DNA from: an uncultured Thermoleophilia bacterium
GTDB lineage: Bacteria > Actinomycetota > Thermoleophilia > UBA2241
DNA: 64,000 nucleotides
Direction of reading: 5' to 3'
NCBI GenBank assembly: GCA_963705085.1
Contig: CAVPIV010000003.1
Coordinates: 343,729 to 407,728, forward strand
Part shown: positions 12,679-18,977 of the stretch, piece after piece
How the letters are laid out: the number at the start of each line of letters is the position of its first letter
How positions within the stretch are numbered: position 1 is the first letter of the stretch
The notes under the pieces: model-generated
Seen by the model: the letters and a program-made list of their open reading frames with translations, nothing else
What the model was told of the DNA's origin: nothing
Database searches by the model: none
Translations under genes and position numbers: made by a program

Positions 12679-13796
12679 GCGATGCCGTCCTCGCCGTCCT
12701 TCGCGCCGTGCTCTTCGTGTTCATCGCCTACACGGTGGTGATGGTCTCCGCGCTCGTCAACATCGTCTTCGAGCGCCGGGTCCTGGGCTTCATGCAGGAT
12801 CGCCTGGGGCCGAATCGAACCGGCCCTCAGGGCGTCCTGCAGAGCGTCGCCGACTCCTTCAAGATGCTGGGCAAGGAGGACTTCCGGCCGCGGCTTGCCG
12901 ACCCGTACCTCTTCACCCTGGCGCCGATCATGGTGATGATCGGCGCCGTCGCCATCCAGGTCGTCGTGCCGTACACGAAGGGCCTGGTCGCCACCGAGCT
13001 CGACGTCGGCGTGATCTTCCTGGTAGCCATCACTGGCTTCACGACGCTGGCCATCCTGCTGGGCGGGTGGTCGTCGAACAACAAGTACTCGCTGGTCGGC
13101 GCGCTTCGCGGCGCCGCCCAGATGATCAGCTATGAGATCCCGATGATCCTGGGCCTCCTGGTGGTGGCCATGACCGTCGGGTCGCTGCGGCTGACGGACG
13201 TCGTGGCTGCGCAGGCCGGGTACCAGTGGCTCGTCTTCTACGCTCCGTTCACGTTTGTCATCTTCTACATCGCTTCGATCGCGGAGCTGAACCGCGGCCC
13301 CTTTGACCTGCCGGAGTCGGAGTCGGAGCTGGTGTCCGGCTACGGGACGGAGTACTCGGGCATGCGCTTCGGCATGTTCTACCTGAACGAGTACGCCGGC
13401 CTCACCATCATGTCCATGGTGACAGTCACCTTGTTTCTGGGAGGCTGGCACGGGCCGTTCGAGGACGCCATCAGCTTCTGGGGCGTGTCGTGGCTGCCGC
13501 TGATCTACTTCCTGGCGAAGACCTACGCGCTCGTCTTCCTGCTCGTCTGGATCAGGCTGTCGCTGCCTCGCCTGCAGGTTGACCAGCTCATGTCCTTCGC
13601 CTGGAAGATCCTCATCCCTCTCGGCCTTGTCAACATCCTCGCGGTCGGCGCCGTGATCCTCTGGGTGCCGCAGTGGAAGTGGGGGCTGGCAATCTACAGC
13701 TGGGTCGCCCTCCTCGCCTTCGTGGCGCTCTTCGATCCCATTCTCAAGTGGCGCCTGCGCAGGCAGCGCGCCCGCCTGCCGGTGGTGCATGCCTGA
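12675..13796 (+). CDS. nuoH: NADH-quinone oxidoreductase subunit H
   Basis: GTG 12675 overlaps the nuoD stop (GTGA), with GGAGG 9 nt upstream. VSALVNIVFERRVLGFMQDRLGPNRTGPQGVLQSVADSFK...; 373 aa, polytopic. Confidence 0.85.
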   Translation: MSDAVLAVLRAVLFVFIAYTVVMVSALVNIVFERRVLGFMQDRLGPNRTGPQGVLQSVADSFKMLGKEDFRPRLADPYLFTLAPIMVMIGAVAIQVVVPYTKGLVATELDVGVIFLVAITGFTTLAILLGGWSSNNKYSLVGALRGAAQMISYEIPMILGLLVVAMTVGSLRLTDVVAAQAGYQWLVFYAPFTFVIFYIASIAELNRGPFDLPESESELVSGYGTEYSGMRFGMFYLNEYAGLTIMSMVTVTLFLGGWHGPFEDAISFWGVSWLPLIYFLAKTYALVFLLVWIRLSLPRLQVDQLMSFAWKILIPLGLVNILAVGAVILWVPQWKWGLAIYSWVALLAFVALFDPILKWRLRRQRARLPVVHA

Positions 13797-16497: not shown

Positions 16498-18977
16498 GGA
16501 CGCTGGCCACGCCTGCCCGAGACGTGCGGCGGCCGCCGCCGCAGCCTGGCCAGGTGATCGTCGAGATCGACGGCCAGGAGATCGCCTGCGATCGCGGCGA
16601 GACAGTCCTGGTGGCCGCGCGGCGGGCCGGCATCCACATCCCGACGCTGTGCCTCGAGCCGCGCCTGCCGGCCACCGGCGCCTGCCGTATGTGCGTCGTC
16701 GAGATCGAGGGCGCGCGCAAGGTGATGACCAGCTGCACGACGGCCGTCGCGGACGGTATGGTGGTGCGCACCAACACGCAGAAGCTGCGCGCCATGCGGC
16801 ACTTCTACCTTGAGTTGCTGCTGAGCGACCACAACTCCTTCTGCACCCCGCCGTGTCGCGATGCCTGCCCGACGCACATCAAGATCCCCCAGTTCCTCGA
16901 CTTCATCGCGCACCGCGACTACAAGAACGGCGTACGAAAGCTGCGAGAGGATCTGCCCTTCCCCGCCATTCTCGGTCGGGTCTGCCCGCGACCCTGCGAA
17001 GGACCATGCCGGCGCCAGCTCGTCGACCAGTCGATAACGATCTGCCAGCTGCATCGCTTCATGGCCGACCAGTGCCTCGACGAGGAGCAGGAGGGCGAAT
17101 TGCTGCTGCCGGTCGAGCCGAAGGCCGACACCGGCAAGAAGATCGCGATCGTCGGCGGCGGACCCGCCGGGCTCGCCGCCGCCTTCTACGCGCGGCTCGA
17201 GGGCCATGCGGTCAAGATCTTCGAAGCCATGCCCAAGCCGGGTGGGATGCTGCGCTACGGGATTCCGAGCTACCGGCTGCCGCGCGAAGTGCTGGAGAAG
17301 GAGATCAACGTACTCTGGCGCCTGGGAGTCGGGCTGCAGGCGAACACGAGGCTGGGGGTCGACCTCCAGCTCGAAGATCTGCTCGCGGAGTACGACGCCG
17401 TCTTCCTCGCCCTCGGGGCGTTCAACAGCAACGACATGGGGATCCCGGGCGAGGACGCCGACGGGGTCGTCAACGCGGTCGACTTCCTCGGCGAGCTCGA
17501 GCTCCACGGCGATGTGCACGTGGGCCGGCGGGTGACGGTCATCGGTGGCGGCTTCACCGCCATGGACGCCTGCCGGACCTCGGTGCGCAAGGGGGCCGAG
17601 GAGGTCACCTGTCTCTACCGGCGGTCACGCAAGGAGATGCCGGCGCACCACAGCGAAGTCGACGAGGCCGAGGAAGAAGGCGTCAGGCTCGAGCTCCTGT
17701 GCGCTCCCGTCCGGGTCGTGACGGACGAGGCCAACAAGGTGACGGGGATCGAGATGCAGCGCATGGAGCTCGGTGAGCCGGACGCATCGGGCCGGCGCCG
17801 CCCTGTCCCGCTGGATGGCTCCGAGTTCATCGTCGAGTGCGATCAGATCATCGCGGCGATCGGCCAGTATCCGCGGCTGGACGGGACGAGCGAGGAGCAG
17901 GGTGTCACCCGCACCAGGTGGCGCACGATCAAGGTTGACGACTGGACCTATCAGACCGCCGATCCGCGGGTCTTCGCCGGCGGCGACGTCGTGCTCGGAG
18001 CGCAGACGGTGGTCCAGGCGGTGGCCCAGGGCAAGAAGGCCGCCTGGAGCATGGACGCCTTCTTGCGAGGCGCCGATATGGCGGCCGTGACGGAGCAGCT
18101 CGCGCTCCTCAAGTCGGCGCCCTTCGTCGAGGCGCTGGCCGTCAGGGGCGACGTCGACCCGCGTATTGCGCGCATGGCCGAGATCCCGCCGGTGTTCATC
18201 GACATGACGACCGACGTGACCGGTCCGCTGCCGCCGGCCGAGATGCCGATGCTGACGCCGGGCGAACGCCGCGGCGACTTCCGGCAGATCGAGCTCGGCT
18301 TCGGCGAGGACGCCGCCGCCGAGGGCGCGGGACGGTGCCTCGACTGCTACTGCCCAGCGAACGGCGCCTGCGACCTGCAGCGGTACAGCATTGAGTACGA
18401 GGTCTTCCACAACCGCTTCCACGGCGGAGAGGCTCACAACTACCCCGCCGACTTTCGCCACGACTTCATCATGCGCGAGCCCAATCGCTGCATCAACTGC
18501 GGGCGCTGCGTACGCGTGTGCCGCAGCGAGGTCGGGGCGAGCTGCTACGACAACATGGGGCGGGGGTACGACGCCATCGTCAGCACCGCCGACAACCTGC
18601 CGCTGCAGATGGTCGGTTGCGTGTCGTGCGGCAAGTGCGCCGAGACGTGCCCAACGGGCGCGATCGTCACCAATCCGCGGAAGCTGGAGCGGTACGGGCT
18701 CGACTTCAGCCGCTGCATGTTCTGCGGCGAGTGCGTCGAGGTCTGCCCGTACGACGCGCTCGAACAGAGGAGCTTCTTCGAGCTCGCGGACTTCAGTCGC
18801 GGCGCGCTCGCCGCCGAGTCGCTGTACGTACGGGAGCCGCGCCCTGTCGACCTGCTGCGCGAGACGGTGACCGATCTGGTGCCGCACGTCCTCGACGCGG
18901 AGCTCGGCCGTGGCTGGGTATGGGAGCCCATCAAGGACGATCCCGTGCGCCTTGACGGCGAGGAGGGTGAGTGCTGA
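16494..18977 (+). CDS. Multi-domain Fe-S flavoprotein: N-terminal NuoG/HydA-like [2Fe-2S] ferredoxin domain, GltD/NfnB-like FAD/NAD(P)H domain, and C-terminal NuoG-like His/[4Fe-4S] clusters plus a NuoI-like 2x[4Fe-4S] ferredoxin tail
   Basis: Start uncertain (GTG 16494 or GTG 16521). N-terminus [17 protein letters not shown]...[18 protein letters not shown]. GltD-like [18 protein letters not shown]...[33 protein letters not shown]. C-terminus [33 protein letters not shown]...[65 protein letters not shown]. The last part aligns to the NuoI core and tail (ERY...RCIFCGLCEEACP...DFEMADY). Confidence 0.75.
   Translation: [827 protein letters not shown]

Follow-up and report, generated by a model that had tools for sequence, protein, structure and literature searches.

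Complex I is usually described as an assembly of a few fixed modules, in which NuoG feeds NuoI, and the Nfn-Bfu/StnABC enzymes (Sporomusa-type Nfn) are soluble electron-bifurcating NADH-dependent ferredoxin:NADP+ oxidoreductases. A complex I of 14 subunits whose NuoEFG is of the Bfu type, named 'Nuo-Bfu', has been predicted in Geobacter, Deferribacteres, Planctomycetes and Nitrospirae, with the BfuABC genes in place of NuoEFG midway through the 14-gene nuoA-N cluster (Schut et al. 2022, PMC9304861). In mbx-like operons of Thermotoga and proteobacteria, a GltD-type flavoprotein stands in place of NuoI (PMC4758237). Here, we analyzed a stretch of 64,000 nucleotides (hereafter the window) from an uncultured Thermoleophilia bacterium (assembly GCA_963705085.1, contig CAVPIV010000003.1, positions 343,729 to 407,728), whose nuo operon contains three Bfu/Nfn-type genes between nuoH and nuoJ, here called g1, g2 and g3, with a part of NuoI fused in frame to each of the outer two.

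On the basis of current results, this locus is probably a functional and conserved operon that encodes a complex I of the 11-subunit type (NuoA-D, H and J-N) with an Nfn-Bfu/Stn-like input module inside nuoI. A complex I with a Bfu-type input module has thus already been proposed, and the wiring through a split NuoI appears to be the new part. In the literature searched, we found neither a split nuoI nor this Thermoleophilia operon described, which is not proof of absence. The initial annotation of this DNA, made from the sequence without database searches, likewise did not recognize the architecture among described complex I variants, but it mentioned neither the 'Nuo-Bfu' nor the mbx-like precedent.

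Organization of the nuo operon

From 10065 to about 24900 on the forward strand, the open reading frames (ORFs) of the window, whose G+C content is about 68%, read as a single tightly coupled operon with the order nuoA-B-C-D-H-(g1-g2-g3)-J-K-L-M-N, in which the genes overlap or are separated by 2-25 nt (Table 1). The genes for the Q and P modules of complex I (nuoA, B, C, D, H, J, K, L, M and N) are all found in this one operon. NuoD is of the quinone-reductase type, with the motifs QHPSTHG and DRTEYL, a single Cys (in DPCFMH) and no NiFe Cys pairs, and the four Cys of cluster N2 can be read in NuoB, in motifs that include PGCPP. We take these NuoB Cys and the quinone-site His and Tyr of NuoD to be equivalent to the Thermus residues.

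The canonical 14-subunit layout places E, F and G between nuoD and nuoH. Here nuoH comes directly after nuoD, and the E/F/G-like genes are placed after nuoH and have a Bfu/Nfn architecture. The operon contains no stand-alone nuoE, F, G or I. In place of a one-piece NuoI with two CxxCxxCxxxCP motifs, the two motifs are located 4.7 kb apart on different polypeptides. A six-frame scan of the 64-kb window for CxxCxxCxxxC returned only an IorA-like gene, g1, g2, g3 and one unrelated ORF at about 43.5 kb. Thus, the gene order given in the initial annotation agrees with our ORF reading and with the NCBIfam matches of NuoB, NuoC, NuoD and NuoJ, and its statement that stand-alone nuoE/F/G and an intact nuoI are missing is true for the operon.

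The junctions that join the module to its neighbors are also exactly as had been read before. The stop of nuoH ends at 13796, where the ATG of g1 begins (TGATG); g1 ends at 14557 and g2 starts with ATG at 14560 (TGAGCATG); g2 ends at 16497, after the GTG start of g3 at 16494 (GTGTGA); and g3 ends at 18977, on the first letter of the nuoJ ATG (TGATG).

Subunits of the inserted module

The product of g2 has the complete domain set of BfuB: an N-terminal [2Fe-2S] domain (residues 38-113), a flavin mononucleotide (FMN)/NADH domain (193-364), an N3-type [4Fe-4S] domain (475-559) and a C-terminal 2x[4Fe-4S] domain (576-628). Its Pfam matches are PF01512 (Complex1_51K), PF10589 (NADH_4Fe-4S), PF01257 (2Fe-2S_thioredx, 38-113) and two Fer4 domains (576-628); Pfam gave no separate match for an SLBB domain. 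Over its full length g2 could be aligned to 7t2r_B (E 4e-240), 9bov_B, 8oh5_B and 9n5u_B, with E values of about 1e-225 to 1e-240, and in the alignments to HydB, NfnB and StnB all cluster motifs are kept. This agrees with the earlier view of the gene as a NuoF homolog with the extra HydB/BfuB domains. In addition, g2 preserves the His and three Cys of the B2 site (C438, H525, C531 and C536 in the numbering of A. mobile HydB), residues that are described as missing from non-bifurcating homologs, with the His as diagnostic of bifurcating BfuB (PMC9304861).

The product of g3 is a BfuA of the Nfn type. It begins with a [2Fe-2S] domain (Fer2_4, residues 21-95), followed by a GltD/NfnL-like region with 2x[4Fe-4S], flavin adenine dinucleotide (FAD) and NADPH parts (Fer4_20 and Pyr_redox_2, 117-525), an all-Cys motif resembling the N5 cluster of NuoG (614-630) and a 2x[4Fe-4S] F-domain with two motifs, A and B (658-726; Fer4_Nqo3 658-724). 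Thus, both the [2Fe-2S] and the ferredoxin-type domains of BfuA are present, and the FAD-NADPH domain that distinguishes Nfn-Bfu is found after the N-terminal [2Fe-2S] domain. Residues 21-746 match NfnA of Caldicellulosiruptor (9bov_A) with an E value of 6e-191, and g3 could also be aligned to StnC of Sporomusa (8oh5_C) and NfnA of Thermococcus sibiricus (9n5u_A). Together with the full-length matches of g2, this result supports the assignment of the module to the Bfu/Nfn type. In the 9bov_A alignment, an 11-residue segment of g3 pairs with VLYRRTREEMPA of NfnA, which by our own reading may be an NADPH-binding/specificity motif.

The C-terminal part of g3 is different from that of the soluble enzymes. 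The alignment to the 1178-aa NfnA ends at about residue 697. Past the F-domain, the soluble homologs continue with an FdhF-like domain of about 450 residues, whereas g3 has only 8 residues before the C-terminal half of NuoI; the C-terminal NuoG/FdhF-like (molybdopterin-type) domain of soluble BfuA is absent. In StnC, the FdhF-like C-terminal domain mediates tetramerisation (PMC10482914). The initial annotation had described gene 3 as a [2Fe-2S]-GltD-NuoG-like protein ending in a 2x[4Fe-4S] ferredoxin, with a last motif and tail from NuoI. The domain order and the NuoI affinity of the last motif and tail were upheld, but the number of motifs had to be revised, as the C-terminus has three CxxCxxCxxxC motifs: A (18489), B (18618) and C (18714). 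Judging from the alignments, motifs A and B belong to a 2x[4Fe-4S] domain of the NfnA/HydA type, and motif C appears to be the only one that is derived from NuoI.

In the product of g1, a NuoI N-terminal segment with the first Cys motif is followed by a NuoE-like [2Fe-2S] domain as in BfuC, as the initial annotation had it. Residues 8-74 match NuoI (TIGR01971, positions 2-66 of 121, E 3.4e-13) and residues 104-244 match the NuoE-type 2Fe-2S_thioredx family (PF01257, E 3.5e-48); the NuoE profile NF005722 gave 142 bits. In 15 homologs, C52, C55, C58, C62 and P63 of the NuoI motif and the four [2Fe-2S] Cys are invariant.

Two complementary parts of NuoI

The NuoI pieces of g1 and g3 cover complementary and non-overlapping parts of the TIGR01971 profile (positions 2-66 and 69-115), and the break site is the loop between the two Cys motifs. 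Residues 727-773 of g3 account for the second part (positions 69-115 of 121, E 1e-16). In the Protein Data Bank (PDB), the g1 N-half matched NuoI/TYKY chains of solved complex I structures, down to 1e-9, and the g3 C-half matched NdhI/NuoI chains over their second half only. The profile searches therefore bear out the proposal that the module is located inside nuoI, whose pieces are fused in frame at both of its edges.

When the two halves were rejoined in silico, they gave a single continuous alignment to TIGR01971 (positions 2-116 of 121) with 107.3 bits, just below the cut-off of 113. We also used a custom profile of 70 one-piece NuoI proteins, on which the rejoined sequence scored 149 bits, the N-half 94 (positions 10-80) and the C-half 49.5 (positions 86-133), with about 5 positions missing at the break; since these proteins were collected from matches to the g1 N-half, the profile inflates the N-half score somewhat, and the TIGR01971 result is independent of that. 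Extending the C-half by motif B of g3 raised its score on this profile to 58.6 bits. Because motif B adds only about 9 bits, it is more reasonably regarded as a generic ferredoxin motif than as the first motif of NuoI.

These scores bear on a different topology, in which NuoI would not be truly split: motifs B and C of g3 would form a two-cluster ferredoxin in the NuoI role, and the N-segment of g1 would be an anchor with a vestigial or single-cluster motif. Such an arrangement would fit the pairing of residues 709-755 of g3 by the Pfam profiles Fer4_7 and Fer4_10, the top PDB matches of the g3 C-terminus, which are polyferredoxin chains, and the spacing of 32 residues between motifs B and C, which is compatible with clostridial ferredoxins. 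Moreover, the fusion protein P0255 described below is a natural case of a NuoI N-segment that stands apart from a complete two-motif core. However, motifs A and B are the ones that pair in the alignment to the solved NfnA F-domain, and the gain in NuoI score from motif B is small compared with about 94 bits from the g1 motif region. A vestigial motif would not be expected to keep its four Cys and its Pro invariant across species, as the g1 motif does, and the rejoined sequence aligns to NuoI as a single stretch. We consider this topology quite unlikely; motifs B and C as a complete NuoI core were the less likely choice by profile scoring.

Conservation in related genomes

To date, 78 related loci have been collected in a scan with one genome per species, with synteny determined by tblastn. 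According to the record titles, almost all of them are uncultured Thermoleophilia, Actinomycetes or Actinomycetota metagenome-assembled genomes (MAGs), and the sources include mire (palsa and bog), a Chersky sample, Lac Pavin sediment, anaerobic membrane bioreactors (AnMBR) and many MFD-labelled samples. The g1 fusion is carried by 74 of the 78 loci, and the order nuoA-B-C-D-H-g1-g2-g3(+NuoI-C)-(J)-K-L is found in all 55 loci that are not truncated by a contig end. The nuoH-g1-g2-g3-nuoJ arrangement, for which a search of related genomes had been suggested at the outset, is thus present in many genomes.

At the protein level, more than 120 clusters of g1-type fusions (63-100% identity with full-length coverage) and more than 120 clusters of g3-type fusions (71-91% identity) could be identified. 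Across 41 loci, conservation of the NuoI C-half of g3 is 90% or more and motif C always follows motif B at a distance of 32 residues, and the Cys ligands are all conserved (15 homologs for g1 and 41 loci for the g3 C-terminus). It should be noted that the current automatic annotations (among them 'NADH-quinone oxidoreductase subunit E', 'FAD-dependent oxidoreductase' and 'formate dehydrogenase major subunit') miss this architecture.

The wide occurrence of the fusions also bears on whether they could be assembly chimeras or frameshifts, or the cluster a decaying and non-functional paralog. Many indels are present in nuoL, nuoM and nuoN of the window, and its long contig is typical of long-read metagenome bins, both of which would be in line with an artefact or decay. 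On the other hand, the same fusions and gene order were found in 74 loci from independent samples, whose assemblers differ as judged by contig name (SPAdes NODE_, MEGAHIT k141_ and long-read contig_). Identities of 53-88% are accompanied by full-length coverage and conserved ligands, and the region 13796-18977 has no unpaired indels. Since the contigs come from both short- and long-read assemblers, a chimera is excluded, and this candidate was rejected given the same architecture in many independent assemblies. The explanation by artefact or decay as a whole is very improbable and is largely refuted.

Several loci show related architectures. Four loci from other phyla (L072, L074, L077 and L078, with the labels Vicinamibacteria, Dehalococcoidales and Fermentibacteraceae, and one unclassified bacterium, L074) have genes of the g1E, g2 and g3 types without NuoI pieces or nuo genes. 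All three gene types are present in L074, L077 and L078; L072 is a 2-kb fragment with g1E and g2 only, in which the g1-like gene is cut by the contig start. In the third gene of L074 and L078, a CxxCxxxC motif is found after motif B in place of the NuoI half. These loci fit an origin of the module from a soluble Nfn-Bfu operon.

In a related Actinomycetes MAG (L064, 10001-14273), the split-nuoI frame is kept and the module is degenerate. Its NuoF-like gene is about 30% identical and has lost both extra Fe-S domains, and its g3-like gene lacks the segment matching residues of about 322-477 of g3, which we assume to include the NADPH-binding subdomain. The lost segment is replaced by a 2x[4Fe-4S] block with 64% identity to the C-terminus of g2.

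A search of protein representatives revealed two further fusions. In another lineage, P0130 (L079, 8001-10701) is a 607-aa fusion of a NuoI N-half, a Cys-poor NuoE-like segment and a plain NuoF; it follows nuoA-B-C-D-H and is itself followed by a g3-like [2Fe-2S]-GltD gene that is cut by the contig end. P0255 (L080, 530-2533; 667 aa) has a GltD-type FAD/NAD(P)H domain between a NuoI N-terminal segment and a complete two-motif NuoI core. Its neighbors are nuoH and nuoJ-K-L and, unlike in the window, the insertion precedes motif 1. Because of these sister architectures, input modules have apparently been grafted onto NuoI repeatedly. The most elaborate form, with three genes and a truly split NuoI, seems to be that of the window.

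Comparison with described complexes

Among described systems, those closest to the module are the soluble Nfn-Bfu/StnABC enzymes (8oh5, 9bov and 9n5u), with which it shares the three subunit types, the gene order NuoE-like, BfuB and BfuA with a GltD insertion, and the FMN, FAD/NADPH and Fe-S motifs, all kept in g1-g3. In contrast with these enzymes, g3 has the NuoI C-half where the FdhF-like C-terminal domain would be, and g1 has the NuoI N-half. In addition, the window genes are located between nuoH and nuoJ, and the enzyme is presumably membrane-bound, with quinone as an extra acceptor.

As for 'Nuo-Bfu', a Bfu-type core is proposed here as the input of a proton-pumping, menaquinone-reducing complex I that may perform NADH/ferredoxin confurcation (PMC9304861). 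Unlike in 'Nuo-Bfu', the module of the window is found between nuoH and nuoJ, its nuoI is split and its BfuA contains a GltD domain. The description in PMC9304861 mentions no split nuoI and no GltD/NADPH domain, and the clades are not actinobacterial; from that description we take the nuoI of 'Nuo-Bfu' to be intact. With mbx-like operons and P0255, the window has in common a GltD-type NAD(P)H flavoprotein wired at the NuoI position (in L080, the order is nuoH, NuoI::GltD, nuoJ-K-L). However, the NuoI::GltD type is a single polypeptide with the insertion before the first Cys motif and the ferredoxin core whole, and it has no NuoE- or NuoF-like subunits.

With regard to canonical complex I (Thermus Nqo1/2/3/9), the FMN/NADH subunit, the [2Fe-2S] domain of NuoE, the NuoG-type Fe-S domains and the N6a/N6b motifs are homologous, and the gene set of the Q and P modules is shared. 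The differences are the extra Bfu domains of NuoF, the GltD insertion and missing molybdopterin-like domain of the NuoG-like subunit, the split NuoI and the placement of the module genes after nuoH instead of between nuoD and nuoH.

Proposed assembly and electron flow

These comparisons suggest that a whole soluble bifurcating enzyme has been inserted, in frame at both ends, into a loop of one of the core Fe-S subunits, and that this arrangement has been conserved in the clade. The insertion lies in a surface loop of NuoI, between its two CxxCxxCxxxCP motifs, so that NuoI is made as two halves. The N-half is fused to the N-terminus of the NuoE/BfuC-like g1, and the C-half is joined by the 8-residue linker to the end of the Fe-S domain of the BfuA-like g3, at the place where soluble NfnA/StnC have their FdhF-like domain. 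In the assembly that we propose, clusters N6a and N6b would staple the g1 and g3 halves together, since each cluster of a 2x[4Fe-4S] ferredoxin fold is held by three Cys of one motif and a fourth from the other. The stapled halves could then dock the whole module on NuoB, NuoD and NuoH. As far as the sequence goes, this agrees with the initial proposal of a flavin-based module that replaces the canonical N-module and is wired to the membrane arm through a split NuoI.

With respect to electron flow, NADH would deliver electrons to the FMN of g2 and NADPH to the FAD of the GltD domain of g3, and both would converge on the mid-potential Fe-S chain of g3. From this chain, electrons would pass through the reconstituted NuoI to N2 in NuoB and on to menaquinone, with proton pumping by NuoL, NuoM and NuoN. 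The tether of g3 is tight (8 residues) and that of g1 is loose (about 28 residues, variable), which points to the g3 chain as the electron source for NuoI, in the manner of NuoG in complex I. Since g2 and g1 keep all features of the bifurcating BfuBC core, the co-oxidation of ferredoxin and NADH (confurcation) is plausible, as in 'Nuo-Bfu'. A further and more doubtful step is that N6a and N6b are each ligated by Cys of both g1 and g3, and that the complex might serve as a four-substrate proton-pumping hub confurcating NADH and ferredoxin, accepting NADPH and reducing menaquinone, that is, as a membrane-bound, energy-conserving Nfn-Bfu transhydrogenase; we can put this forward only tentatively.

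The same architecture could also operate in reverse, as an energy-converting membrane-bound transhydrogenase/ferredoxin reductase. In that case, the proton-motive force and menaquinol would drive electrons uphill into the Bfu module, and their bifurcation there would supply biosynthesis with NAD(P)H and reduced ferredoxin. Both the Bfu/Nfn enzymes and complex I are reversible (PMC9304861, PMC10482914), and the ferredoxin-side domains (the C-terminal 2x[4Fe-4S] of g2 and the C-terminal [2Fe-2S] of g1) as well as the NADPH site of g3 are kept. However, no sequence feature sets the direction, and the neighboring genes, with one for an IorA-like protein, suggest a catabolism that produces reduced ferredoxin and not a demand for it. 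Furthermore, the habitats are largely anoxic (peat, digesters and sediments), in which, by our reasoning, low-potential donors are probably plentiful. Reverse operation is therefore an unlikely direction for this complex.

Several observations weigh against our preferred explanation, a functional operon for a complex I with the module inside nuoI. First, g2 has Val at the position of the B2 ligand C476 in A. mobile HydB, where about two-thirds of BfuB sequences have Thr (PMC9304861). Second, AlphaFold2 gave low confidence for the rejoined NuoI: the mean predicted local distance difference test score (pLDDT) was 30 for g1 1-76 plus g3 724-785 (single sequence), and it was 36 for a chimera of g3 598-827 and g1 1-100 (block alignment with 12 bridging rows). 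Third, motifs B and C of g3 (residues 709-755) can be paired by Fer4_7, which is a generic profile. Fourth, canonical nuoEFG and nuoI, or a second complex I, may be present elsewhere in the genome. Fifth, all of the support comes from sequence.

Finally, about 20 or more unpaired indels of 1-2 nt were found in the 3' end of nuoL and in nuoM and nuoN (21491-24900). The indels were located by blastn against three related loci (L001, L002 and L042), and the frame changes by tblastn with NuoL, NuoM and NuoN of L020; no unpaired indels could be observed in the 10.0-21.4 kb region, which includes g1-g3, against the same three loci. The three genes are in one frame in both short-read loci checked (L020 and L025). 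The damage is probably a local sequencing or assembly error, or possibly decay of the window copy. The indels are not obviously located in homopolymers.

If the proposed assembly is true, the locus would be a concrete and datable example of the grafting of an input module onto the ancestral 11-subunit complex. It would also offer natural tests of Bfu-type confurcation coupled to quinone reduction and proton pumping (so far only predicted, as 'Nuo-Bfu'), of NADPH as a direct respiratory donor and of a two-cluster ferredoxin fold assembled from two chains. The carriers are uncultured Thermoleophilia of soils, peat, permafrost, lake sediments and anaerobic digesters.

Table 1 Genes and domains of the nuo operon (window positions)
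Feature	Position	Strand	Length	Evidence and remarks
nuoA	10065..10433	+	122 aa	ORF reading; kept upstream of the module in related loci
nuoB	10424..10975	+	183 aa	NCBIfam NuoB NF005012, 241 bits (cut-off 116)
nuoC	10980..11471	+	163 aa	TIGR01961 NuoC_fam, 121.2 bits
nuoD	11464..12678	+	404 aa	NF004739 NuoD, 453 bits (cut-off 360)
nuoH	12675..13796	+	373 aa	Stop shares 1 nt with the g1 start
g1	13796..14557	+	253 aa	N-terminal NuoI half and NuoE/BfuC-like domain
g1 residues 1-75, NuoI N-terminal half	13796..14020	+		TVQYPEE...ERSRG segment and first motif CRSCTLCETNCP
g1 residues 76-103, variable linker	14021..14104	+		Low conservation in alignment; no domain match
g1 residues 104-253, NuoE/BfuC-like thioredoxin-fold [2Fe-2S] domain	14105..14557	+		C171, C176, C212, C216
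g2	14560..16497	+	645 aa	BfuB-type NuoF, complete
g3	16494..18977	+	827 aa	NfnA/StnC-type BfuA and C-terminal NuoI half
g3 residues 1-726, Nfn-type BfuA	16494..18671	+		NF009454, E 1.5e-187; NfnA/StnC alignments; Pfam
g3 residues 727-773, NuoI C-terminal half (...FELADF)	18672..18812	+		TIGR01971
g3 residues 774-827, C-terminal tail	18813..18977	+		Partly conserved (GWxW); stop overlaps the nuoJ start
nuoJ	18977..19489	+	170 aa	NF005168 NuoJ, E 5.8e-34
nuoK	19486..19794	+	102 aa	ORF reading, synteny
nuoL, nuoM, nuoN	19819..24900	+		Frame-interrupted in the window from 21491 onward

Neighboring genes and other features of the window

The flanks of the operon (1648-5793 and 25758-33000) appear to contain genes of ferredoxin-linked catabolism of aromatic or branched amino acids. 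They include an IorA-like thiamine pyrophosphate/ferredoxin oxidoreductase (1648-3450), two PaaK-like AMP-binding ligases (4381-5793 on the forward strand and 25761-27077 on the reverse strand) and a Liv-type ATP-binding cassette transporter with two periplasmic binding proteins (27062-32998). The IorA-like and PaaK-like neighbors lend weak support to a ferredoxin-linked metabolism.

Upstream of nuoA, a TatA/TatB-like gene on the reverse strand (9057-9812) adjoins tatC (8262-9056). The part encoding its C-terminal region contains a 114-bp tandem repeat at 9083-9356 (2.4 copies, 97% identical), which encodes a repeated 38-aa segment rich in Pro, Glu and Ala. Further downstream, an ORF of about 465 aa on the reverse strand (43393-44787) has a separate pair of 2x[4Fe-4S] motifs near 43488 and 43572, and it is unrelated to NuoI by context.

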